From a bacterium (GTDB taxonomy: Bacteria; Patescibacteriota; Minisyncoccia; UBA6257; JAGOQP01), in NCBI GenBank assembly GCA_021812345.1, contig JAKANP010000003.1, positions 82 through 64,081 of the forward strand: a stretch of 64,000 nucleotides of DNA, given 5' to 3'. Below are positions 4,383-50,614 of the stretch, piece after piece. Every line of letters starts with the position of its first letter. Position 1 is the first letter of the stretch. The notes under the pieces were generated by a model, which was not told the DNA's origin, made no database searches, and worked only from the letters and a program-made list of their open reading frames with translations. Position numbers and translations under genes: made by a program.

Positions 4383-5453
4383 ATGACTGACTACAAACAA
4401 AAATTAAATGATTTGCTTTTAATGTGCGCCAAGCAAGACGCTTCCGATTTGCACATTGCCGTCGGAAGACATCCGACTTTGAGAATTGACGGCGCTTTAG
4501 TTCCTTTGACCAAGGAATCAATTTTAACTCCTCAAGATACCGAAGGATTGGTTACTGCAATTTTAACCGAAACTCAAAAGGGAGAAATGTCTTTAAAAAA
4601 ACAAGTTGACTTCTCATATACTTTTGAAGATAAGGCGCGTTTCAGGGTTAATACTTATTATCAAAGAGGATTTATGGCGATGGCCATGAGATTGATTCCG
4701 GCAAAAGTAAAAACCGTTGAAGAATTAAGATTGCCCCCGATAGTTCATGATTTTTCATCTATATCTCAAGGATTTGTTTTGGTTGTCGGTCCCGCCGGTC
4801 ATGGAAAGTCCACCACTTTGGCGGCAATCATTGATGAAATAAATCACAATAGAACGGAACACATCATAACCATTGAAGACCCGATAGAGTATCTTTTTTT
4901 ACAAGACAAAAGCATTGTCTCTCAGAGAGAGGTTAAAATAGATACCGTTGATTTTTCCGATGCCTTAAGATCGCTCTTAAGACAAGACCCGGATGTGGTG
5001 ATGATAGGAGAAATGCGCGATACCGAATCAATTTCCACGGCGCTAACCGCCGCCGAAACGGGACACTTGGTTCTTGCCACTTTGCACACAAATTCCGCAT
5101 CGCAAACTATTGATCGTATTATCGACAGTTTTCCGGCAGAACAGCAAAGCCAAGTAGCTTCACAGCTTTCTGCGGTATTAGTTGGAATAGTTTCAGAACG
5201 TCTTATTCCAAGAATTGATGGCGGAAGAGTTCCGGCTTGCGAAATCATGATCGCCAATCCGGCCATAAGAAATTTGATTCGTGAAAGAAAAACTTATCAG
5301 ATAGATTTGGTTATTGAGACTAATTCTCAAGAAGGAATGATAACCTTAAATCGTTCGCTTACCGATTTGGTCAAAAGAAGGGAAATCAGCTTGGAAAATG
5401 CGGAAACTTATTCGTTGAATCCTTCGGAATTAAGAATTTTGTTGGAGAAATAA
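4383..5453 (+). CDS. pilT: Twitching motility / pilus retraction ATPase PilT
   Basis: Walker A GPAGHGKSTT, 356 aa, PilT-like motifs (LRQDPDVVMIGEMRD, TGHLVLATLHTNSA). Confidence 0.9.
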   Translation: MTDYKQKLNDLLLMCAKQDASDLHIAVGRHPTLRIDGALVPLTKESILTPQDTEGLVTAILTETQKGEMSLKKQVDFSYTFEDKARFRVNTYYQRGFMAMAMRLIPAKVKTVEELRLPPIVHDFSSISQGFVLVVGPAGHGKSTTLAAIIDEINHNRTEHIITIEDPIEYLFLQDKSIVSQREVKIDTVDFSDALRSLLRQDPDVVMIGEMRDTESISTALTAAETGHLVLATLHTNSASQTIDRIIDSFPAEQQSQVASQLSAVLVGIVSERLIPRIDGGRVPACEIMIANPAIRNLIRERKTYQIDLVIETNSQEGMITLNRSLTDLVKRREISLENAETYSLNPSELRILLEK

Positions 5454-5498
5454 TTTTTAATTTTAATTTCTTAAGAAACATTAAACGGCGAAAGAATT

Positions 5499-6713
5499 AT
5501 GAAATTCAAATATCAAGCAAGAAATAAAACAGGAGAGCTTCAGGTGGGATTTGTTGAAGGCCCGAGCAAGGATGCCGCCATAAGCACGCTCACTACTCAC
5601 GAGCTTTTTGTCTTGAGTTTGGAGTCCGCCGAAAGAAAAAGCCCCTTTGATAGCATTTTGGGTTTTTTTAACAGAGTCAAAACAAAGGATTTGATGGTTT
5701 TTACCAGGCAACTGGCGACAATGCTTGAATCCGAAATGCCGTTAAACAGCGCCTTGCAATCTCTTTATCAGCAAACTCCTAAAGTCGCTTTAAAGGAAGC
5801 CGTCTTTGAAATTTTACAGGATGTTGAAGCGGGACTTTCTTTATCGCAAGCGCTTGAAAGACAACAACCAATTTTTTCCGACTTTTATGTGAGTATGGTT
5901 CGCTCGGCTGAAGTAACCGGACGTCTTGAAGAGTCGATGATGTTTTTGGCAAGCTACATAGAAAAAGAAGCCGGTTGGAAAGGAAAAATTTCAACTGCCA
6001 TGATTTATCCCGGAGTTTTAATCACGATGTTTGTTATTGTTGCCGGAGTTATGGTGGCTTTCGTTTTTCCTAAAATTGGTCCGGTCTTTCAGGATTCGGG
6101 AGTACAACTTCCATGGATGACGCAGGCGCTTTTGACTGTCGGTTCATTTTTGACCAACTGGTGGTGGCTGGCGATATTACTTGTTGCCGGTATTGCATTC
6201 ATAATTGTCGATTATTTTAAAAGTCCCGAAGGAAAAGCGGTTGGAAATCAGTTGATTATAATTGTGCCGGTTTTTGGGGAGCTTTTCAGAAAAATTTATA
6301 TCGCCAGATTTTCTCAATCGCTCAGCGTTTTGATTAAAGGAGGAATTCCCATAACTCAGGCGATTGAAATCGCTTCTTCTACTATCGGTAATGTGGTATA
6401 CGAGGAAATTTTAAAAGATATTGCCGAAGGAGTGAGAGAGGGGGCCTTGCTTTCAAATTTGCTGTCTTCTTATCCAAAATATTTTCCTTTGATGGTTGGC
6501 CAAATGGCGGCAGTCGGAGAAAGCACCGGAAGAGTTGATGAGATGATGAGCAAAATATCCGATTTTTATGATAATGAAGTAAATGATATGATGGCAAACC
6601 TGTCCGAGCTTATTCAGCCGATATTGATTTTGATTATCGGAGTTTTAATCGGACTTCTTTTTGCCGCAATATTGCTTCCAATCTACAATTTGGCGCAATC
6701 GTTTAAGATTTAA
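5499..6713 (+). CDS. pilC: Type IV pilus platform protein PilC (GspF family)
   Basis: 404 aa, two T2SF-like halves, polytopic membrane protein. Confidence 0.85.
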   Translation: MKFKYQARNKTGELQVGFVEGPSKDAAISTLTTHELFVLSLESAERKSPFDSILGFFNRVKTKDLMVFTRQLATMLESEMPLNSALQSLYQQTPKVALKEAVFEILQDVEAGLSLSQALERQQPIFSDFYVSMVRSAEVTGRLEESMMFLASYIEKEAGWKGKISTAMIYPGVLITMFVIVAGVMVAFVFPKIGPVFQDSGVQLPWMTQALLTVGSFLTNWWWLAILLVAGIAFIIVDYFKSPEGKAVGNQLIIIVPVFGELFRKIYIARFSQSLSVLIKGGIPITQAIEIASSTIGNVVYEEILKDIAEGVREGALLSNLLSSYPKYFPLMVGQMAAVGESTGRVDEMMSKISDFYDNEVNDMMANLSELIQPILILIIGVLIGLLFAAILLPIYNLAQSFKI

Positions 6714-39333: not shown

Positions 39334-39660
39334 ATGTTATCCAAAGAAATTTCCGAAAAAATAAAATCCGGCGCTCTTGTGTCGGTAGTTGAAAGAATCA
39401 AAGAGGGCGATAAAGAAAGACAGAGCCAATTTAAGGGCATTGTTTTATCAAGAAAGCATGGCGATCAGCCCGGGGCAACTTTCACTGTTAGAGCGGTCGT
39501 CGATGGAGTGGGTGTTGAAAAAATTTATCCTTTATTGTCGCCGAATATCGTTTCGGTAAAAATAATTTCTTCTCCCAAAAAAGTGGGACGTTCGAAACTT
39601 TATTATTTGAGAAAAGTTTCCAAAAAGAAATCAAGGCAGAAAATCGGAGTAACGGCATAA
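39334..39660 (+). CDS. rplS: 50S ribosomal protein L19
   Basis: ISEKIKSGALVSVVERIKEGDKERQSQFKGIVLSRKH...FTVR...GVEKIYPLLSPNIVSVKI...KLYYLR matches bL19. Confidence 0.8.
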   Translation: MLSKEISEKIKSGALVSVVERIKEGDKERQSQFKGIVLSRKHGDQPGATFTVRAVVDGVGVEKIYPLLSPNIVSVKIISSPKKVGRSKLYYLRKVSKKKSRQKIGVTA

Positions 39661-39694
39661 ATTCAAATCAAATATCAAATCTAAAATATAAAAA

Positions 39695-39724
39695 CAAAAA
39701 CAGGGGATCATACCCCTGTTTTTG
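39695..39724 (+). terminator. rho-independent terminator after rplS
   Basis: aaaacaggggatcatacccctgtttttgg. Confidence 0.65.
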
Positions 39725-39786
39725 GTAAAATACATTGTTATGCGCTAATACCTTGAGCGAAATATTATATTTGATAAAATATAAAT

Positions 39787-40452
39787 ATGAATCCTTTGGG
39801 TAAAGTTAAAATCAAATGGTCTCCGAATTTTGCTTACGCGATTGGGTTGATAGCGACAGACGGAAATTTATCATCAAATGGCAGATGTATTGTTTTTACG
39901 TCAAAAGACTTGGAAATGATAAATAATTTTTTAAAATGTCTATCTGTATCTTCAAAAATAAGCATGAAGGCTAGGAGCAATGAGAAAGAGAAGAAGTATT
40001 ATTATGTTCAGATCGGGGATATAAATTTCTATAAGTTTCTGAATTCTATTGGACTTACTCCGGCAAAATCAAAAACTATCGGAATTATTAACATACCTGA
40101 CAAATATTTCTTTGATTTTTTGCGGGGACATTTTGATGGGGATGGCACTTCCTATTCTTATTGGGATAAGCGTTGGAAATCAAGCTTCATGTTTTATACA
40201 GAGTTCATATCGGCCAGTAAAAAACATATTGATTGGCTTAGGGGCGAAATTTCTAAAAAAATTGGAATCAATGGGCATATAACAAAATCAAAAAATAATT
40301 CAGTTTATCAATTAAAATATGCGAAAAGAGAGTCTACAAAATTGATTTCAAGAATGTACTATGGTAAAAAGGTTGTATGTCTTTCTAGAAAAATAGAGAA
40401 AATCAAAAAGGCATTAGCAATAAATAAAGTTGAAGATGCCCAGGTGCTGTAA
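39787..40452 (+). CDS. Free-standing LAGLIDADG homing endonuclease (double motif)
   Basis: Two LAGLIDADG motifs: YAIGLIATDGNLS and FLRGHFDGDGTSY, 221 aa; not inside an obvious intron or intein host; 3' end overlaps tRNA-Leu(GAG) by 15 nt. Confidence 0.8.
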   Translation: MNPLGKVKIKWSPNFAYAIGLIATDGNLSSNGRCIVFTSKDLEMINNFLKCLSVSSKISMKARSNEKEKKYYYVQIGDINFYKFLNSIGLTPAKSKTIGIINIPDKYFFDFLRGHFDGDGTSYSYWDKRWKSSFMFYTEFISASKKHIDWLRGEISKKIGINGHITKSKNNSVYQLKYAKRESTKLISRMYYGKKVVCLSRKIEKIKKALAINKVEDAQVL

Positions 40453-40521
40453 CTGGTAGCCAGGCCAGCTTGAGGTGCTGGTGTCCGCAAGGACGTGGAG
40501 GTTCGAGTCCTCTCCTGGGCA
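40438..40521 (+). tRNA. tRNA-Leu(GAG)
   Basis: GCCCAGGTGCTGTAACTGGTAGCCAGGCCAGCTTGAGGTGCTGGTGTCCGCAAGGACGTGGAGGTTCGAGTCCTCTCCTGGGCA; anticodon loop TTGAGGT, long variable arm. Confidence 0.8.
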
Positions 40522-40558
40522 CAAAACAAAACAGCCAAATAGGCTGTTTTGTTTTGTG
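40522..40558 (+). terminator. Strong hairpin immediately 3' of tRNA-Leu(GAG)
   Basis: acaaaacaaaacagcc-aaat-ggctgttttgttttgt, 16-bp perfect stem. Confidence 0.6.
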
Positions 40559-40720
40559 CAGGAAGCAGGTAAATTTATTTGCTTGTGTGAGGATTCGAAC
40601 GACGGAGTATGTGCGAGCCAGCAGGCGAGCGCACGAGTCGGTGCCCAGCCCGAGCTGAGCGACTGGCGAAGCGAGAGGCGAGGGTAAATCCCTTACCTGC
40701 CGGTAGGCAGGTCTCCTGGG

Positions 40721-41050
40721 TACTACTTCGCTCCTACTTCGTAGAAACTTCGTAGGACGCGGTAAAGCTTCGTAGCACAAAGCACTACTTTGCTCCTACT
40801 TCGTAGAAACTTCGTAGGACGCGGTAAAGCTTCGTAGCACAAAGCACTACTTTGCTCCTACTTCGTAGAAACTTCGTAGGACGCGGTAAAGCTTCGTAGC
40901 ACAAAGCACTACTTTGCTCCTACTTCGTAGAAACTTCGTAGGACGCGGTAAAGCTTCGTAGCACAAAGCACTACTTCGCTCCTACTTCGTAGAAACTTCG
41001 TAGGACGCGGTAAAGCTTCGTAGCACAAAGCACTACTTTGCTAAAGCTTC
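40721..41050. repeat. Tandem array of 5.2 near-identical 62-bp units with phased TTCGTAG-type subsites (iteron-like)
   Basis: Unit CTCCTACTTCGTAGAAACTTCGTAGGACGCGGTAAAGCTTCGTAGCACAAAGCACTACTTTG repeats without spacers; each unit has three exact CTTCGTAG plus one degenerate copy with start-to-start spacings 11/11/20/20 bp. Confidence 0.9.
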
Positions 41051-41115
41051 TTTTTTTAATAGAGCAAAACATAAAATAGGCCCATCACGGTCTATTTTTG
41101 ATTTTATTTATCAAC

Positions 41116-41144
41116 TTGACACAAGTAATAATATGTGCTAGTAT
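41116..41144 (+). promoter_or_regulatory. Sigma70-type promoter (TTGACA-17-TAGTAT) upstream of the GC-rich ORF
   Basis: Core TTGACACAAgTAATAAT nearly identical to the promoter at 42154; followed by SD AGGGAGG 6 nt before ATG 41249. Confidence 0.5.
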
Positions 41145-41248
41145 TTGCTCATAATCGGGGGATGAGGGATTGTCCCAAAATTCTACCGATACAGCACTCA
41201 ATGTTTTAATGTTTTTGTCCCGATGGGAGTCGGGGCAGGGAGGTCACA

Positions 41249-42025
41249 ATGGAAGCGATGGAGAGAATCAAGGGTTTGATGGACGAGAAGGCCGTCGAGA
41301 AGTGGGCCGGTGAGTTCGGGACCTGGAAGGACAAGATGGTCCACGAGCTCGCCAACGAGCTGTCCAAACGAGGGTTCTCCTCCGAGAACCCGGCAGCGGC
41401 AAAGGACGTCAAGGCGGCCGAGCAGTTTCTGGCCGCCAAGAGGCAGCTCGTGGAGGCGAAGGTCGACGAGACCTTCACCCCCGAGAACATCGCCGCCGCA
41501 CATCTGGACTGCATCATCAAGGTCCAGGTGGATGAGACGCAGGAGTTTCGTGTCATCTGTCAGTCGCCTCGTCACGCCGGGGCGAACATGGCAGTTCTCC
41601 CGACCCAGAAGTTCATCGTCCGCAAGAACGCGGACGGCGAGCTGACTCGGATGTGCCACCAGGGCACATCCGAGGCGATCGTCACCGGCGACTTCCTGGT
41701 CACCGGGGAGGGGCGGATCATGCGCTTCTGTCCCTTCTGCAAGGACAAGGCGATCGCCGCCGCCCGCGAGCGTGGCGAGAAGTTGACGTTCTACCGCCTC
41801 GGCGAGGCGGTGAACAAAATCTCCCGCATCCGGGAGAACGAGGCGCGCGAGGCCGAAGAGAACGCCAAGCGCGAGGCTGAGGCCGAGCGGATGGAGCACT
41901 CGGCTTCCCGACAGATCGCCGGCAAGCGCGTGGACTCCCGACGCGCCGACTTCAACCGTCGGCACACCTCCGGACTCAAGCGTGCCAGCGGAAAGTTGGC
42001 CCGCGATCTCATGAGCGAAGACTGA
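41249..42025 (+). CDS. Orphan GC3-rich protein (foreign-looking), Cys motif FCPFC
   Basis: 258 aa; coding region about 62% GC with strongly G/C third positions in a 35% GC genome; good SD; terminator at 42088; no recognisable domain; the antisense ORF 41198-42046 is a high-GC artefact. Confidence 0.6.
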   Translation: MEAMERIKGLMDEKAVEKWAGEFGTWKDKMVHELANELSKRGFSSENPAAAKDVKAAEQFLAAKRQLVEAKVDETFTPENIAAAHLDCIIKVQVDETQEFRVICQSPRHAGANMAVLPTQKFIVRKNADGELTRMCHQGTSEAIVTGDFLVTGEGRIMRFCPFCKDKAIAAARERGEKLTFYRLGEAVNKISRIRENEAREAEENAKREAEAERMEHSASRQIAGKRVDSRRADFNRRHTSGLKRASGKLARDLMSED

Positions 42026-42087
42026 GTGAAAGCACTCTCTCTTCACTAAATTGACCCTGGAGGAGTCAATAGTGAAGGGAAAAAATC

Positions 42088-42117
42088 AAAACCCTGACAA
42101 TAACGTCAGGGTTTTTT
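42088..42117 (+). terminator. rho-independent terminator
   Basis: aaaaccctgacaataacgtcagggtttttt. Confidence 0.7.
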
Positions 42118-42153
42118 AATTTCCAAGCGAGCATATTTGATGGATCAATTAAT

Positions 42154-42182
42154 TTGACACAATAATAATTTCGGTATATTAT
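42154..42182 (+). promoter_or_regulatory. Sigma70-type promoter (TTGACA-17-TATTAT)
   Basis: aatTTGACAcaataataatttcggtaTATTAT; paralogous to the promoter at 41116. Confidence 0.5.
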
Positions 42183-42318
42183 ATTTTTAGTATTTTTATA
42201 TATAAATTAGTAATGAGCTGACTACCTTCATCTAAAGATGATCGCGGATTTAACGCTGACTCTCGCAGATGAAGAGAGTGAGCTCGTTACTAATGAAAGA
42301 GCAAGAAAGGGGAACAAG

Positions 42319-43068
42319 ATGAGCAATTTATTTTCTTCCGATTTTTTTTCGACTCGCGATATTTTTTTGAATTTGTTTGAGAGCAGTCGGGTTGATATCG
42401 GCAAAAAGGGTTTTCGCTTTAGCACTCAGATTCGAGATTTGGTGAAGAAAGGAATTGAGGTTCTCAAGAGTGGAAACAGAGATGAGATTGGCGGAATCAG
42501 ACAAAAAATTTCCGATGCTTGGACAGAATTAATTGATGCCCGTATTCCTTCGGATCTTGCTTGGCGTCACGAAGCCGAGGCGGCTCAAGAATTGTGGGAG
42601 TTTGAATTTGTTGTAGCTATGTACGATTATCTTTTTGACGGCGCGGCGTTGGATTTTAAGAAGTTTGATATTTATCCGCCGGATGAAGATGGCGATGAAG
42701 ATAGCGAAGAATATCGTGAAAAACAAGCGAGAAACGATTATATGTGTTCATTTACTCCTCAGCAATGGCTCGCCGGTCTTATCGATGCTCCTACCGAATT
42801 GGGTAAGGTTTTGGAGGATTATTGTATTGACAATGATCTTTCTCCCAGCGCGTACGTAGAACTGTGGGATAAATATGTTAAGATCGTGGAGCAAGTTGTG
42901 AACTTTCTCAGCCCGTTTGAAAATGTGTATGGGCAGGTAATCAACAACTCCCGGATGCGCGGATTTGCCAATACTTTTCGCGGTCGCTATGGTCGGCTGC
43001 GCGGATTTCTTGAGAGAAAAAAGCGCGACTTGATGATACTCAGACTTCAAATGAAGATTGGTTTGTAA
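42319..43068 (+). CDS. Hypothetical all-alpha protein (orphan); start at ATG 42319 after SD AAGGGG
   Basis: The annotated ORF begins at 42238, but SD plus ATG at 42319 (MSNLFSSDFF) fits better; intermediate GC (about 45%); terminator at 43083. Confidence 0.45.
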   Translation: MSNLFSSDFFSTRDIFLNLFESSRVDIGKKGFRFSTQIRDLVKKGIEVLKSGNRDEIGGIRQKISDAWTELIDARIPSDLAWRHEAEAAQELWEFEFVVAMYDYLFDGAALDFKKFDIYPPDEDGDEDSEEYREKQARNDYMCSFTPQQWLAGLIDAPTELGKVLEDYCIDNDLSPSAYVELWDKYVKIVEQVVNFLSPFENVYGQVINNSRMRGFANTFRGRYGRLRGFLERKKRDLMILRLQMKIGL

Positions 43069-43082
43069 TTTATTTTAAATAT

Positions 43083-43110
43083 GTCCCGGTAGTTTCCGGG
43101 ACTTTTTTTA
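43083..43110 (+). terminator. rho-independent terminator
   Basis: gtcccggtagtttccgggacttttttt. Confidence 0.7.
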
Positions 43111-43234
43111 TTTAAAATAATTTTATCAAGCATCTTACAACCGTAGGATGCCTGATAAATTAATATTAACGCATAATCATTTTTTGCCTTTTTGTAAAAT
43201 TTTATTTAAAATAAAATCATCTAAAATAAAAATT

Positions 43235-44380
43235 ATGAAACGAGAAAATATTGTCGCCAAAGATCAAACAAGCGAAAAATTGCTCAAGGAAATAGAAAAC
43301 AAAAACGATATTAAAAGTGAAAGAATTAAAAGGCTTTTGGCAATGCCGGATCTTTCACGAAAAATAAATTCTCCGCTTAAATTTATTATTGACGCCATTC
43401 TGGCTCTGCCGATTTTCAAAGATTTTGATATTTTGGAATTTCCGGAAATTGTAAGTGTTCGGGATAATTTTGATTTGTTAAATGCCCCCGCCGAACATCC
43501 CAGCCGAAAAGAAACCGATACTTATTATGTTGACGTAAATCATGTTTTGCGAACTCAAACTACGGTTATGTGGCCGTTTTATTTACAGCGTCCTGAAGCG
43601 ATAGAGCAACTTAAAAAAGAAGGAGAAATAGGATTGTTGAGTTACGGAAAAGTTTTTAGAAAAGATGAAATAGACAGAAGTCATTTTCCGGTTTTCCATC
43701 AGATAGACGGACTTTATATTTGCAAAAAAGAAAAGAAAATAATCGGCATCCCGGAACTTCAGGAGGTCTTAACTGCCATAACGAAAGCTATTTATGGAGA
43801 TATAGAATACAAATTTTTGGAAGACAGTTTTCCTTTTACAAATCCAAGCACTCAAATTGAAATAAAATCAAAAGATGTTTGGCTTGAAGTTGTCGGCGCC
43901 GGAGTGGTTCACACTCAGGTGCTAAAGAATCTTAATATTGATCCGGAAATTTATAACGGATGGGCATTCGGATTCGGCTTGGAGCGTCTGGCGATGATAA
44001 AGAACGGTATCAACGATATCAGAGTTTTTTGGTCCAACGACGAAAGGATTGCCGGACAATTTAAAGATATAAATAGTCAATACAAAGAAGTAAGTAAGTT
44101 TCCGATGACTTATCGCGACATTTCATTTATTATAAATAAGGATACGAGTTTGAATAATTATTACGAAATTGTCCGTGATTGCGCCGGTGATTTAGTGGAA
44201 GAAGTTAAAATGACCGACAAATATGAAAATAATCAAAAATTCGGTCCGGATAAAATAAGTTATACTTTCAGAATTACCTATCGCTCTCCGGAAAGGACGC
44301 TCACCAACGAAGAAGTAAATTTGATACAAGAAAAAATTATTGAAAAAACAAAACAAGAGATAAACGCTGCCGTGCGTTAG
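43235..44380 (+). CDS. pheS: Phenylalanine--tRNA ligase, monomeric type: PheS catalytic core fused to C-terminal FDX-ACB anticodon-binding domain
   Basis: Class II motifs (HPSRKETDTYYV...LRTQTT; FPFTNPSTQIEI...WLEVVGAGVVH; AFGFGLERLAMIKNGINDIRVF) followed by PMTYRDISFII...ISYTFRITYRSPERTLTNEEVN, which matches the FDX-ACB fold normally at the PheT C-terminus; no pheT in window. Confidence 0.8.
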   Translation: MKRENIVAKDQTSEKLLKEIENKNDIKSERIKRLLAMPDLSRKINSPLKFIIDAILALPIFKDFDILEFPEIVSVRDNFDLLNAPAEHPSRKETDTYYVDVNHVLRTQTTVMWPFYLQRPEAIEQLKKEGEIGLLSYGKVFRKDEIDRSHFPVFHQIDGLYICKKEKKIIGIPELQEVLTAITKAIYGDIEYKFLEDSFPFTNPSTQIEIKSKDVWLEVVGAGVVHTQVLKNLNIDPEIYNGWAFGFGLERLAMIKNGINDIRVFWSNDERIAGQFKDINSQYKEVSKFPMTYRDISFIINKDTSLNNYYEIVRDCAGDLVEEVKMTDKYENNQKFGPDKISYTFRITYRSPERTLTNEEVNLIQEKIIEKTKQEINAAVR

Positions 44381-47566: not shown

Positions 47567-50500
47567 ATGTTCAAAAAAATATTTTTATCTGTTTTTGTCA
47601 TTTTGGTCGGGTTCGCTTCGGTTTCTTTGGTTAGGGCCCAAAGTGTAAGTGATTTACAGGCTCAACTTCAGGCGCTTTTACAGCAAGTTGCCAATCTTCA
47701 AGCTCAGATTAAAGCTCAAAACGGAGGGACTTCAAATAGATGGTGCTATACTTTCAATAATAATCTTTCTGTCGGCAGTACCGGAAATGATGTTGCCGCC
47801 CTTCAAACCGCTTTAGCTAAAGAAGGATTTACTATGAACTCAACCGAAACAAATAGCGATACCTTTAGCGAATCAACCGCTTCCGCTGTTTCGGGTTTTC
47901 AGGAAAAATATTCAAGTGATGTGTTAAAACCTTTTGGCCTCAATTATGGTACCGGTTTTGCCGGAAAAGGAACCAGGGCTAAACTCAATGCGTTGTACGG
48001 ATGTAATGCTACAAATCCTCCGGTAGTCGTGCCTCCTAGCCCGACATCAACTCCTCCGGTGATTGGCGGTATTACTGTAACGTCTCCGGCTTCCGGCTCC
48101 ACCTGGTATGTTGGTAGTACATATAATATCCAATGGAATAGTGGAATGAGCAGTGACGTTAAGGTTAATATCTCTTTATATGTTCCTCAACAGCTTTGTC
48201 TTGGAGGAACAGTCGTAAATTGTCAGGCTACAGCTCCTTACTCAATAGCTACAAACGTGGATAATGATGGCTCATATGAGTGGAGTATTCCAACTGCATT
48301 GCCTAAACAATATTCGGGTGGCTATATATTGGTTCAAACAGTTAACGGTTCAACTAGCGGTCAAAGCGCAAGTTTTTCCATCTCATTTAATACCGTTATC
48401 GCTCCAATAAGCGTTACTTCTCCTGCGGCGGGCGATACCTGGAAAACTGGCAGTACCTACAATATCAATTGGTCTTCACGGCAGGGAGCTTTGTCTTCGG
48501 CCTATAAAGTAAAAATATCCATGATTCCGGTTTCGCCGACGCCAGTTTGTCCGCTCGGTTCAATGTGCCCGCAATATCTGATAAAGCCCTATGTAATTAC
48601 GGACTCTACCGATAATGACGGCCAATTTTCATGGACTGTGCCGAGTGATTTTTCCGGATATTATGTTGGACAGGAACAGATAATAGTTGAACAAATCACA
48701 ACTAGCGGTTCTTATGTGGCCAATTCTGTATTTGGAAAGAGCGGAGTATTTACAATTACTTCTGGTTCTTCAAGTCAATACCCGGTAATTTCCGGAGTTT
48801 CCGGACCGACTACTCTTAACGTCGGCCAGCAGGGAACTTGGACGGTAAAAGCATCCGACCCTAATAACGGAACATTGAGTTACTCTGTTGTTTGGGGAGA
48901 CGAAACTGTTTGTTCGGGAAATGTTTGTGCTACAAGCATTAACGGATCTCCTACCCCTCCCGTTCAACAGTCAACATTTACTCATGTCTATAACACTGCC
49001 GGAACATTTACTCCTAAATTTACGGTAACTAATAGTGCCGGACTTAATACCCAGACGAGTTTGAGCGTGAGTGTCGGTAAGACGACAACAACATGCGCGC
49101 TTACCGCTAAAGTTGTTGGGACTAATCTGGCTGAAAATAATACGGCATGGGGATTTGATGTAGCGGTTAGTGCCGTAAATCCCCCCACTTCATCTAATGG
49201 TTGGACTACAAATTTCCAAGGATACACTCCCGAAGTGACCGCTTACGGGACAACAAAACATTACGGGGACTTCTTCATTTCTTCCGGACCGTTGTCATTT
49301 ACCGCTCAAGATCAGATCAATAGTAGTTGCGCAACTTCCATAACAGTTTCTCCTCCGGCTACTAATATTTCGAAAACAATAACAGTGACATCACCGGTTG
49401 CGGGTCAAACTTATGCTGCTGGAAGCGCGCTTAATATAGTATGGACGAGCACTGGCGGAGTAGGGCCGGTTGATATTATTGCTTGGCCGTCGGTATCCTG
49501 TGTTTCAAGTGAAGTGCCATGTATGCTGTCTGCGCCAATAACTATTGCCAGCAAAATTTACAATTCCGGTTCTTACTCTTGGACCATACCCCAATCTTGG
49601 TCGGGGGTGTATTCGATTAGTGTTTATGAAGATGGGTCTACCAATACAAGTGGTTCAAGCGGTAAATTCAATATTATTTCCAGTACTTCCGGACAGGTGT
49701 CAATCAATACTGCCAGCAACATAATGTATGGCGGATCGTTTACAAATTATCTTGTGGGGGCTTACACCATCAGTTCTTCGGCATCAAATCCTCTGGCCAA
49801 CCTGAATTCGATTGATGTGGGTCTTGATATAAACAATGCAAACTCGTCGGCAAGTTCCAACCCGACTATTTCGGTTTATGACATTACAACCGGGTCAATT
49901 GTTGGAAGTAATGTGGCCGATGGCATAAATGGAACGAAAGTTTCAATCCCTCTGCAAAACGAAGCTGTTTCCCCAGGAACATATAAGACCTTATACATAT
50001 ATGTGAACGTGAGTAGTTTAAGAACTCCCGTTGATGCAACTCAAAATGTCACGGCTCAGATATCTGCCTCAAATTTAAAATACACATCCGGCGGTGTTAC
50101 TGGATCGACGGGGAGTAACACTGTTTTGGGTTCGGCTAATCCTGTAGTTATAACTCAGATAACGGCAACGTCGACTCCTTTCAGCATCACATTTCCCACA
50201 GCCGGAACGACCGTGGTTCAGGGACAAACGTATAATATAACCTGGTCAGGCGCCGATACCGGAGTGACCGGCTACAACATTTATCTTGGGGGCGGAGCTC
50301 TGGCAAATACGGTTCCTTCTACCGTTAAACTTCTTGGTACTACATCCGCGTCATCTATGGCAGCTAAATCATTTTCCTGGACAGTGGGAAGTGACGTCGG
50401 AACCGGATCAAATTATTACATCCAGTTCGGCGCCCTTGGAGGGCCCGGGGGTGGAGGTGGAATTAGCCCCGCATTCAACATTACCGCCATATCCAATCCG

Positions 50501-50614
50501 TTTCCTGTCAGCACAACTACTACTTCTCAGTTATCCAACAACTCTAATATGGCTAACATATTGTATGCGGCGTCCCAAACGCTTCAGAACATACTGAATT
50601 TATTGTCTCATTAA
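47567..50614 (+). CDS. Large secreted cell-surface protein: signal peptide, coiled coil, peptidoglycan-binding-like domain, repeated Kre9/KNH-like Ser/Thr-rich modules, PKD-like domain
   Basis: Signal peptide MFKKIFLSVFVILVGFASVSLVRA; PG_binding-like LSVGSTGNDVAALQTALAKEGF; recurring I(T/S)VTSP..G.T...GS.YNI.W modules; PKD-like SGPTTLNVGQQGTWTVKASDPNNGTLSYSVVWGDET. Confidence 0.6.
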   Translation: MFKKIFLSVFVILVGFASVSLVRAQSVSDLQAQLQALLQQVANLQAQIKAQNGGTSNRWCYTFNNNLSVGSTGNDVAALQTALAKEGFTMNSTETNSDTFSESTASAVSGFQEKYSSDVLKPFGLNYGTGFAGKGTRAKLNALYGCNATNPPVVVPPSPTSTPPVIGGITVTSPASGSTWYVGSTYNIQWNSGMSSDVKVNISLYVPQQLCLGGTVVNCQATAPYSIATNVDNDGSYEWSIPTALPKQYSGGYILVQTVNGSTSGQSASFSISFNTVIAPISVTSPAAGDTWKTGSTYNINWSSRQGALSSAYKVKISMIPVSPTPVCPLGSMCPQYLIKPYVITDSTDNDGQFSWTVPSDFSGYYVGQEQIIVEQITTSGSYVANSVFGKSGVFTITSGSSSQYPVISGVSGPTTLNVGQQGTWTVKASDPNNGTLSYSVVWGDETVCSGNVCATSINGSPTPPVQQSTFTHVYNTAGTFTPKFTVTNSAGLNTQTSLSVSVGKTTTTCALTAKVVGTNLAENNTAWGFDVAVSAVNPPTSSNGWTTNFQGYTPEVTAYGTTKHYGDFFISSGPLSFTAQDQINSSCATSITVSPPATNISKTITVTSPVAGQTYAAGSALNIVWTSTGGVGPVDIIAWPSVSCVSSEVPCMLSAPITIASKIYNSGSYSWTIPQSWSGVYSISVYEDGSTNTSGSSGKFNIISSTSGQVSINTASNIMYGGSFTNYLVGAYTISSSASNPLANLNSIDVGLDINNANSSASSNPTISVYDITTGSIVGSNVADGINGTKVSIPLQNEAVSPGTYKTLYIYVNVSSLRTPVDATQNVTAQISASNLKYTSGGVTGSTGSNTVLGSANPVVITQITATSTPFSITFPTAGTTVVQGQTYNITWSGADTGVTGYNIYLGGGALANTVPSTVKLLGTTSASSMAAKSFSWTVGSDVGTGSNYYIQFGALGGPGGGGGISPAFNITAISNPFPVSTTTTSQLSNNSNMANILYAASQTLQNILNLLSH

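Follow-up and report, generated by a model that had tools for sequence, protein, structure and literature searches.

The high-GC gene and its protein

The window analysed here, that is, the whole stretch of 64,000 nucleotides taken from contig JAKANP010000003.1 (assembly GCA_021812345.1), carries an open reading frame (ORF) at 41249-42025 (+) which runs from ATG to TGA, encodes 258 amino acids and differs sharply in base composition from the rest of the window. This ORF, referred to below as the family A gene, is followed by a gene for a TRAX/translin-like putative nuclease, referred to as its partner; the composition of the family A gene, its retention in related lineages and what may maintain it are the subject of this report. 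The PheS protein of the window is 76% identical to that of metagenome-assembled genomes (MAGs) of Candidatus Wolfebacteria / Paceibacterota, and the window therefore belongs to a genome of the Candidate Phyla Radiation (CPR)/Patescibacteria. An earlier note on this DNA had described the ORF as an orphan with codons rich in guanine plus cytosine (GC) and native-style expression signals, and had explained it either by very recent transfer with promoter capture or by selection acting on the DNA itself, an interpretation that is partly supported by the results given here.

The GC content of the family A gene is 63.6%, with 0.62, 0.43 and 0.86 at codon positions 1, 2 and 3 (GC1, GC2 and GC3), compared with 37.3% for the window and a GC3 of 0.27-0.43 in the adjoining genes. 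Among the window ORFs of at least 100 amino acids it is the only GC3 outlier, besides frames overlapping its own locus, the real genes having values of 0.24-0.43. Its codon usage is the inverse of that of the host, as the note had said of its G/C-ending codons: GAG makes up 27 of 30 codons (16% in the host) and AAG 19 of 21 (13% in the host), all eight codons of the CAG pair are CAG, Ile is written exclusively as ATC (12/12) and Asn as AAC (9/9), and 23 of 25 Arg codons are CGN, with AGA accounting for 58% of Arg codons in the host. The promoter, the Shine-Dalgarno sequence (SD) and the terminator that had been called native in style were all located, together with two structures in the 5' untranslated region (UTR):

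41116-41144, + strand: sigma-70-type promoter of the family A gene, TTGACA-17-TAGTAT with a TG motif, 10 of 12 matches in a consensus scan
41151-41248, + strand: 5' UTR of the family A gene, about 98 nt, 48% GC, its start placed from the promoter
41154-41190, + strand: 5'-proximal three-part stem-loop in the 5' UTR, from individual folds
41219-41234, + strand: hairpin in the 5' UTR directly before the SD, its loop carrying an SD-like GGGAG
41237-41243, + strand: SD of the family A gene, AGGGAGG
42088-42115, + strand: intrinsic terminator of the family A gene, an 11-bp stem followed by a T-run, from a terminator scan
41198-42046, - strand: antisense ORF of 282 amino acids, its codons the reverse complements of the sense codons, a by-product

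The family A ORF evolves fast. It is a genuine protein-coding gene under purifying selection, because the ratio of non-synonymous to synonymous substitution rates (dN/dS) between loci L001 and L004 is 0.22 (dS 0.36, dN 0.081; proteins 86% identical), differences between close orthologues are in excess at the third position (27/17/53 at sense codon positions 1/2/3) and particular Cys and His residues are invariant. Three-base periodicity is also strong, and the coding sequences (CDSs) of the orthologues align in frame with one terminal stop each. The antisense frame is free of internal stops since the codons TTA, CTA and TCA are missing from the sense gene, and a GC1 of 0.83 is not what a gene would typically have; this frame was rejected as a true gene, the + strand being the one that agrees with promoter, SD, terminator and substitution pattern alike. 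Contiguity at the two AT/GC junctions is supported by a comparison of assemblies: the segment 41013-42300, which spans both, is identical in six independent assemblies (three from ENA, two NCBI MAGs and one from Logan), and a chimeric contig is therefore not the explanation. General translational optimisation was likewise rejected as the cause of the codon bias, since the ribosomal-protein and core genes of the window (L19, gap, the RNA polymerase genes and others) have a GC3 of 0.30-0.38 without preference for G/C-ending codons.

Elsewhere in the window, an ORF of 1015 amino acids at 47567-50614, for which public calls list PG_binding, Kre9/KNH and PKD-type domains, also has a raised GC content (0.44-0.49). 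This rise is concentrated at codon position 2 (0.53) and is consistent with the amino-acid make-up of a large surface protein, unlike the GC3-driven family A gene.

The FCPFC motif and the charged C-terminal helix noticed earlier in the family A protein are present, the former at residues 160-164 and the latter containing EAREAEENAKREAEAER, and the protein, described as K/E-rich, is indeed so but is more exactly A/E/R/K-rich. Four residues, C104, H109, C161 and C164 (C-x4-H ... C-x2-C), are invariant in the family, as is D73, and H137 is nearly so. The four Cys/His residues, conserved as ligands within a compact domain in the manner that characterizes zinc domains, indicate a zinc site, and the protein would be zinc-binding and probably nucleic-acid-binding. 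The best AlphaFold2 (AF2) model (pLDDT 70) consists of a helical domain at the N-terminus, a small, central, beta-rich Cys/His domain, partly of low confidence, and, after it, a long charged helix with a basic tail; no fold relative was found for the predicted structure. The statement that the protein has no recognisable domain holds for Pfam, NCBIfam, PHROGs and PADLOC, none of which contains a matching family, though the four invariant residues do point to zinc; the only match of the family profile among Protein Data Bank (PDB) sequences, to a SAP-like stretch of pTAC3 (E=0.86), is non-significant.

"Orphan" was nearly the right word. When 1.84 billion representative proteins were searched exhaustively with a profile, homologues came back in nine clusters, to which word-indexed protein searches added little, and all nine lie on CPR contigs of about 37-52% GC (42-59% as sampled contigs) whose other genes have 33-53% GC. 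Every family A member has 62-69% GC and a GC3 of 0.81-0.88. A profile search of GTDB species genomes and searches of viral contigs, phage records and plasmid records gave no homologue, and best-hit taxonomy, from which the note had expected a donor lineage, leads to CPR contexts in all nine cases and to no high-GC genome.

Composition, folding and transcript boundaries across lineages

Among hosts in which the locus is syntenic, which are close relatives, PheS is 71-84% and L19 63-84% identical, and the family A proteins are 26-45% identical (21-45% across family pairs). At four-fold degenerate sites of codons for the same amino acid, distant orthologues match at 0.34-0.43, compared with 0.33-0.35 expected from base composition: synonymous sites have been rewritten while staying G or C. 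This near-chance identity, together with the conserved GC3 of orthologues at the same locus in related AT-rich genomes (0.81-0.88), refutes recent transfer, and with it the note's proposal of a very recent arrival that had captured a promoter; the note had itself listed equally high GC in homologues from AT-rich relatives as an outcome that would tell against transfer. The similarity ranks of family A and partner proteins disagree with those of PheS (the L032/L037 partners are 55% identical, for a PheS identity of 71%, the lowest of any pair), and dS along the L001 and L004 locus is a mosaic of values from 0.04 to 0.50.

The same position is occupied in two other Wolfebacteria-like lineages by an unrelated gene, family B, at 6046-6789 of L015 (host contig 42% GC) and at about 4807-5568 of L043 (host contig 38.5% GC), in the order L19, tRNA-Leu(GAG), family B gene, partner, pheS. 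Family B encodes a Cys-free, Ala-rich protein of about 250 amino acids from a gene of 66-68% GC and GC3 0.89-0.96; remote homology between families A and B was tried and rejected (hhalign probability 2%). The high GC thus belongs to the slot and not to the protein family. The L043 protein, 49% identical to that of L015, is read from the sense frame (+), which has an SD, a GTG start and a GC3 of 0.88-0.90; the public call for this locus lies on the antisense strand (4768-5583, minus). A metagenome scan with family B found one more locus only, viral contigs and phage or plasmid records gave no match, and no family was matched in Pfam, NCBIfam or PHROGs, with chance-level hits only in PADLOC (E 0.007-0.02).

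Expression signals are shared across these loci. A TTGACA-17-TATGCTAATAT-type promoter also precedes family A and family B genes elsewhere, and family B has in common with the window gene its promoter type, the 5'-proximal stem-loop and the SD-abutting hairpin. The stem-loop, AUCGG ... CCGAU around a pair of inner helices that vary in sequence from locus to locus, can be folded in L032, L037 and the window (family A) as well as in L015 and L043 (family B), with differing stem sequences and individual z-scores of -2.5 to -4.5, and the hairpin abutting the SD is visible in most of the listed upstream sequences. These leader structures come from individual folds, the MAFFT-based consensus fold having been misaligned and uninformative. 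Downstream of the family B gene of L015 lies a CCCTGAC...GTCAGGG hairpin similar to the window terminator.

Within the window unit, GC is 0.26 in the promoter, 0.48 in the 5' UTR, 0.82 at four-fold CDS sites, 0.41 in the 3' UTR and 0.20 beyond it, and promoter and post-terminator DNA of the high-GC loci has 17-47% GC. GC thus steps up where transcription is predicted to start and drops again past the terminator, and the constraint therefore maps to the transcript. GC content is lower over the first ten codons than over the remainder in 11 of 12 high-GC genes, as expected for a message translated in place.

The predicted folding of the CDS is stronger than its composition requires. Its minimum free energy (MFE) is -385.8 kcal/mol (-0.50 per nt, vs about -0.27 per nt for neighbouring genes), with z-scores of -7.9 against dinucleotide shuffles, -7.9 against permutation of codon order and -5.9 against synonymous shuffles, which keep both protein and codon usage, all from sets of 20-40 shuffles. 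The corresponding values for other genes are as follows:

Family A, P0002: z codon-order -6.4, z synonymous -4.3
Family A, P0010: z codon-order -5.1, z synonymous -4.3
Family A, P0014: z codon-order -4.3, z synonymous -4.5
Family B, L015: z codon-order -4.0, z synonymous -2.8
Family B, L043: z codon-order -2.2, z synonymous -2.3
Partner gene: z codon-order 0.0, z synonymous 0.05
gap (GAPDH): z codon-order -1.1, z synonymous -0.65

In all four genes tested the folding excess is greater in the sense than in the antisense orientation, which points to RNA rather than to duplex DNA. Of the note's second proposal, selection on the DNA itself, the nucleic-acid constraint therefore stands, and its level does not, the constraint mapping to the transcript.

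Part of this structure is conserved. RNAalifold applied to a codon alignment of four diverged family A orthologues gave a consensus of -70.7 kcal/mol, compared with -28.2 +/- 4.9 after permutation of codon columns (z -8.6) and -51.0 +/- 6.3 after independent synonymous shuffles with the protein alignment kept (z -3.1; 0 of 40 reach the native value). Several local CDS hairpins are common to the orthologues and show compensatory changes, and other strong hairpins are lineage-specific; one of each kind is listed here.

41372-41391, + strand: conserved CDS hairpin GGGUUCUC/GAGAACCC (inverted repeat I9), overlapping the conserved GFSxENP motif
41646-41674, + strand: perfect 12-bp CDS hairpin CTCGGATGTGCC/GGCACATCCGAG (inverted repeat I1), over the conserved CH-G motif, lineage-specific

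The hairpin at 41372-41391 pairs at 7-8 of 8 positions in five of five orthologues, and in P0011 a compensatory double change, GGA...AAU, at two third-codon positions (GGAUUCUC/GAGAAUCC) maintains the pairing by means of two otherwise rare A/U-ending codons. In the hairpin at 41646-41674, the inner 5 bp (GUGCC/GGCAC) are paired at 4-5 of 5 positions in all orthologues. A/U-rich features are depleted in parallel: the observed/expected ratio of UA is 0.04 in the window gene, 0.14-0.58 in the other high-GC genes and 0.56-0.71 in host genes, and runs of at least four A/T number 0-6 in high-GC genes (none longer than 5) vs 38-81 in host genes. No Rfam family was matched at the gathering score by the family A segment, which gave sub-threshold chance matches only (E up to 1).

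The TRAX-like partner gene and the surrounding locus

Directly 3' of the high-GC gene, a TRAX-like gene is found in 7 of 7 lineages (five with family A and two with family B), counting those with at least about 700 nt of downstream sequence in the tRNA-Leu-to-pheS slot or the L031 equivalent. In the window its features are:

42154-42182, + strand: partner promoter, TTGACA-17-TATTAT, 11 of 12 consensus matches
42154-42318, + strand: partner promoter and structured leader with a long stem, TAGTAATGAGCT.../...GAGCTCGTTACTA
42319-43068, + strand: partner gene, TRAX/translin-like putative Mg-dependent nuclease of 249 amino acids, by profile similarity

Public calls and the ORF list start this gene at the ATG at 42238 (276 amino acids); the SD, a conserved leader stem-loop (about 42206-42300) and the shared 'MS...' N-termini of the orthologues indicate the ATG at 42319 as the probable true start. 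In L015 and L037 the leader stem is found again, with altered bases. A profile of seven partner orthologues matches the TRAX protein of Archaeoglobus fulgidus (AfTRAX; 3ZC1, E=7e-5; 3ZC0, E=0.003), and Pfam Translin (PF01997) is matched by one of the seven members with E=0.001, below the gathering score. E91, E94, D156 and E160 (ExxE...DxxxE) are invariant in the seven orthologues and align to the ELLE and GFADAVGEL motifs of AfTRAX, D156 aligning to a position that reads Ala in the 3ZC0 chain. The partner is thus a probable TRAX/translin-like nuclease with its putative catalytic acidic residues intact, formal membership of the family being borderline. Its GC3 is mildly raised (0.43-0.68). PADLOC contains no defence or toxin-antitoxin (TA) family for either the partner or family A. 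In L010 (GCA_027423215.1), a MAG from the same population, at the equivalent of window position 42892, a C-to-T change creates a stop in the partner, which is called as 218 amino acids plus a remainder; the high-GC gene there is intact.

SepRS is a PheS-type synthetase, related to the alpha subunit of PheRS. Archaeal TRAX genes form an operon with SepRS (PMC5424206), and C3PO is described as a single-strand RNase in PMC5100593. The literature searched links no TRAX-like gene to a neighbour of inverted composition and describes neither family A or family B, nor their pairing with a TRAX-like gene, nor the phenomenon itself; family A, its replacement in the slot by family B and the coupling to a TRAX-like nuclease in bacteria therefore appear to be undescribed.

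The order of genes in the window is rplS (L19), a LAGLIDADG gene, tRNA-Leu(GAG), a GC-rich repeat spacer, the family A gene, the partner, pheS, an ORF of 100 amino acids and gap (GAPDH). The flanking features are:

39787-40452, + strand: free-standing LAGLIDADG homing-endonuclease-like gene between rplS and tRNA-Leu (Pfam LAGLIDADG_3, E=5e-10)
40438-40522, + strand: tRNA-Leu(GAG), conserved upstream landmark (ARAGORN; Rfam at the E-value threshold, 45.6 bits)
40560-40721: GC-rich spacer 5' of the tandem repeat
40722-41042, no strand: 62-bp tandem repeat between tRNA and promoter, 5.2 copies, about 51% GC (TRF score 628, 98% matches)
43148-44380, + strand: pheS, phenylalanyl-tRNA synthetase alpha, downstream landmark (Pfam tRNA-synt_2d and FDX-ACB in public calls)

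Four family A lineages, namely the window type, L001/L004, L037 and L032 (the last on a contig of 150 kb), keep the order L19, tRNA-Leu(GAG), high-GC gene, partner, PheS, GAPDH, as do two family B lineages. tRNA-Leu(GAG) precedes the module in L001, L002, L004, L006, L015, L032, L037 and L043, its strand being opposite in L015 and L032, and every family A or family B gene lies just 3' of a tRNA gene, in one of three contexts (Leu-GAG, His-GTG or Ile-TAT). The LAGLIDADG gene, of which the last 15 nt overlap the tRNA-Leu gene, is the variable part: it occurs in the window and in L043, L037 gives a weak match, and L001, L004, L015 and L032 lack it. In L019, a relative within Wolfebacteria, L19, tRNA-Leu and PheS follow one another with nothing between, and the module is thus accessory. 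There is no integrase among the called genes of the high-GC-gene loci, and no att-like or tRNA-derived direct repeat flanks the module within 39600-43200.

Several further observations concern the surroundings of the gene. Each unit of the tandem repeat holds three CTTCGTAG motifs, and in other assemblies of the same sequence (L009-L011, L013) the repeat marker occurs once only and the distance from the LAGLIDADG gene to the high-GC gene is 248 bp (4 units) shorter, which is either a real copy-number polymorphism or a collapse in short-read assemblies. A stretch of 17 nt from the variable arm of tRNA-Leu (40483-40499, GTCCGCAAGGACGTGGA) recurs at 15 of 17 positions in a CDS hairpin at 41618-41634 (GTCCGCAAGAACGCGGA), possibly by chance. 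In L001 (3444-3887) and L004 (2098-2541) tRNA-Leu and the high-GC gene are separated by an ORF for a Cys-rich protein of 147 amino acids (CxC...CxxC); this ORF has a promoter to itself, a mildly raised GC3 of 0.52, no match to a known family and a dS between the two loci of 0.04, vs 0.13-0.50 for its neighbours.

Outside this arrangement, the family A gene of L036 is followed by a gene for a metallo-beta-lactamase-fold protein (1502-1798), whose N-terminus resembles those of CPSF73/beta-CASP RNases, and in L041 a NUDIX hydrolase gene (3-539, - strand) lies near family A, away from the L19-pheS locus; possible links of these neighbours to RNA decay are suggestive only. L018, a Paceibacterota contig of 34% GC, carries at 1-470 a partial high-GC ORF (58-64% GC, GC3 0.74, with an N gap inside) that shows no match to the partner or to either family, A or B, and may represent a third family in a related slot.

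Origin and possible role of the high-GC transcript

The best reading of these data is that the extreme G+C content is kept in every lineage by selection on the transcript, and is neither a relic of transfer nor the product of a local mutational bias. More specifically, we propose that family A is a resident, long-standing and fast-evolving gene of a narrow Wolfebacteria-like (CPR/Patescibacteria) clade whose transcript is selected as an 'armoured' mRNA tied to the TRAX-like nuclease, a proposal to which we would give an even chance of being correct. The armour would consist of the 5'-terminal stem-loop, the SD-abutting hairpin, a CDS full of G/C-rich local hairpins with almost no UA or A/U runs, and a strong terminator, and, judging from sequence, ribonucleases directed at single strands or at A/U should act poorly on such an RNA. 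The module would comprise two genes, a high-GC gene, in which family B can replace family A, and a separately transcribed gene for the TRAX-like nuclease. Two unrelated proteins share the armour, the leader and the neighbour, and from this we infer a tie between the armour and the TRAX-like RNase. In one variant of the mechanism the upstream protein, which might be a regulator or inhibitor of the nuclease or its RNA-binding subunit, must be made while the nuclease is active; in the other, protection from bulk decay would leave the mRNA under the control of the dedicated nuclease alone. The broader version, in which the system is clade-wide and any gene in the slot is kept at about 65% GC, UA-poor and overfolded since its transcript must survive an RNase or be controlled by it only, is possible but, in our view, less probable than not. 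The fast protein evolution, the incongruent similarities, the mosaic dS, the absence of the module from L019 and the nonsense variant of the partner fit a module of conflict type or one resembling TA systems.

A number of points weigh against this proposal. The high-GC genes are shifted not only at synonymous sites, since GC1, GC2 and amino-acid composition are affected too (glycine, alanine, arginine and proline, GARP, together 0.30-0.46 vs 0.17-0.25), which would also fit long residence in a high-GC background. The dS of the family A gene is not below that of its neighbours (0.36 vs 0.39-0.50), meaning that individual synonymous sites are not frozen; the shuffle sets behind the folding scores are small, and the folding excess of family B is modest (z -2.2 to -4.0). 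The proposed link of the high-GC gene to the TRAX-like gene is one of adjacency, and the partner has its own promoter and terminator, separate from those of the high-GC gene, and an mRNA without armour (z about 0). Finally, in L036 the family A gene is not followed by a TRAX-like gene, and the high-GC ORF of L018 lies directly 5' of pheS with no TRAX-like gene between.

Among the rival explanations, very recent horizontal transfer from a high-GC donor, with host-type signals captured, would account for a composition and codon usage that look like those of a high-GC genome at all three codon positions, and for the accessory nature of the module, which is absent between L19/tRNA-Leu and PheS in L019; it is hardly tenable in view of same-locus orthologues which share GC3 at 26-45% protein identity with saturated synonymous sites, of the lack of any high-GC-genome homologue in the searches described above (1.84 billion representatives, GTDB species genomes, viral contigs, phages and plasmids), and of folding beyond that of synonymous shuffles, which transfer would not create. 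A more elaborate form of the idea is that a landing pad beside the tRNA gene has been refilled repeatedly from an unsampled pool of high-GC genes, whether of the organisms on which these episymbionts live or of a mobile element, so that each copy is young despite the old appearance of the family. Two unrelated families in one slot, a constant position 3' of a tRNA gene in three tRNA contexts, the shifted GC1, GC2 and amino-acid usage, family A and partner similarity ranks incongruent with PheS and the L001/L004 dS mosaic all speak for such cassette replacement; we nevertheless regard it as unlikely, since the searches revealed no donor, no called integrase and no att-like direct repeat, families A and B share promoter and leader while the GC step sits at the transcript/CDS boundary, and origin alone leaves the excess and partly conserved RNA folding unexplained. 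The idea that codon usage is tuned for expression inside the high-GC host cell of an episymbiont seems to us very improbable. It is hard to credit, too, that the segment is a structured non-coding RNA or DNA element with a fortuitous ORF, an antisense gene or a chimera: high GC in an AT-rich genome is the classic signature of a non-coding RNA, the RNA is highly structured and the public gene call of L043 is on the antisense strand, but the three-base periodicity, the dN/dS of 0.22, the changes mostly at sense position 3, the invariant Cys/His residues, the in-frame orthologues and the lack of an Rfam family contradict a non-coding element, the missing TTA, CTA and TCA codons explain the open antisense frame, and six identical assemblies over both junctions dispose of the chimera.

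Selection could also act on the codons themselves, if G/C-ending codons are read by another subset of tRNAs and translation is thereby insulated from, or gated by, shifts in tRNA supply, such as the TRAX-like protein might cause by cutting particular tRNAs, in the manner of bldA/TTA or of anticodon nucleases. The almost complete switch of two-fold purine-ending codons (AAG 19/21, GAG 27/30, CAG 8/8) and the tRNA gene that always precedes the module are in line with this, and eukaryotic C3PO has a reported role in tRNA processing. Processing of tRNA is also mentioned in PMC5085120, and the archaeal TRAX genes are linked to the PheS-like SepRS (PMC5424206). We consider codon-level selection unlikely all the same, since switches from NNU to NNC leave the decoding tRNA unchanged yet are equally complete (ATC 12/12, AAC 9/9), GC1 and GC2 are raised too, and the explanation predicts neither folding beyond synonymous shuffles nor conserved hairpins. 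A local neutral bias, such as GC-biased gene conversion (gBGC) at a recombination hot spot or transcription-associated mutation, would raise GC without any function; there are signs of recombination at the locus (the mosaic dS and incongruent similarities), LAGLIDADG genes adjoin in several lineages and the GC3 of the partner is mildly raised. The GC step, however, is sharp and follows the transcript/CDS, with promoter and post-terminator DNA at 17-47% GC, and L19 and the tRNA-proximal genes beside the LAGLIDADG gene are not enriched. The shift of GC3 from 0.32 to 0.86-0.96 is very large, and to our knowledge far exceeds reported bacterial effects of gBGC. Neutral bias gives no sense-biased folding beyond synonymous shuffles, and such overfolding, together with the transcript-shaped boundaries, argues against regional mutational or conversion bias, which we therefore hold to be quite improbable.

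Several known systems resemble the present case in part. Compositional islands at tRNA genes resemble the present locus in atypical GC and codon usage, tRNA adjacency and patchy presence; here, however, the composition is kept in diverged syntenic orthologues with saturated synonymous sites, neither a donor nor an integrase nor an att repeat came to light, the limits of the GC-rich stretch track those of the transcript and folding exceeds what composition gives. The partner is like C3PO/AfTRAX (3ZC1) in its profile match, in the ExxE...DxxxE residues and, as with archaeal TRAX, in having a gene for a PheS-type synthetase as neighbour; its similarity to translin/TRAX is remote, and the high-GC gene, with its predicted beta strands and Cys/His site, is not translin-like. 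Transcripts without ACA escape the endoribonuclease toxin MazF, and the logic proposed here would be the same, a message remaining translatable while an RNase degrades bulk mRNA. MazF-spared mRNAs lack a motif of 3-5 nt, whereas the escape of family A and B transcripts, as read from sequence, would involve the whole transcript (GC3 0.8-0.96, hairpins, UA depletion) and a TRAX-like nuclease. In type V TA systems an RNase antitoxin cleaves the toxin mRNA (GhoS/GhoT). The type I mRNAs hok and aapA1 are described as highly structured and long-lived (PMC6733600). Type I and type V systems are comparable in mRNA folding selected inside the CDS and in that a structured message may be coupled to an RNase of its own; their messages are short and encode small membrane peptides, whereas two unrelated proteins of about 250 amino acids and no antisense small RNA are found here. 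No catalogued defence or TA system matches the proteins of the module in PADLOC, Pfam, NCBIfam or PHROGs. 'Superfolder' therapeutic mRNAs are engineered for maximal pairing and minimal unpaired U and UpA through synonymous choice; the design principles are the same, and the high-GC gene would be a natural bacterial example conserved across lineages. We regard the finding as a variant of selection on mRNA folding and of RNase-spared transcripts, in which the effect is extreme and conserved.

Atypical GC is routinely read as recent transfer, and the present locus, where it is a conserved and apparently selected property of a resident gene, provides a counter-example for programs that search for islands; such composition has already misled a gene caller, as the antisense annotation of L043 demonstrates. 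If our proposal is true, the family A and family B genes would represent natural whole-transcript selection for RNA stability by way of synonymous sites, the principle used in therapeutic mRNA design, and would give bacterial TRAX/translin-like nucleases their first functional context. On the broader, clade-wide version, immunity or regulation in these CPR bacteria would be written into the synonymous sites of a whole CDS, a TA-like logic that has not been described before.

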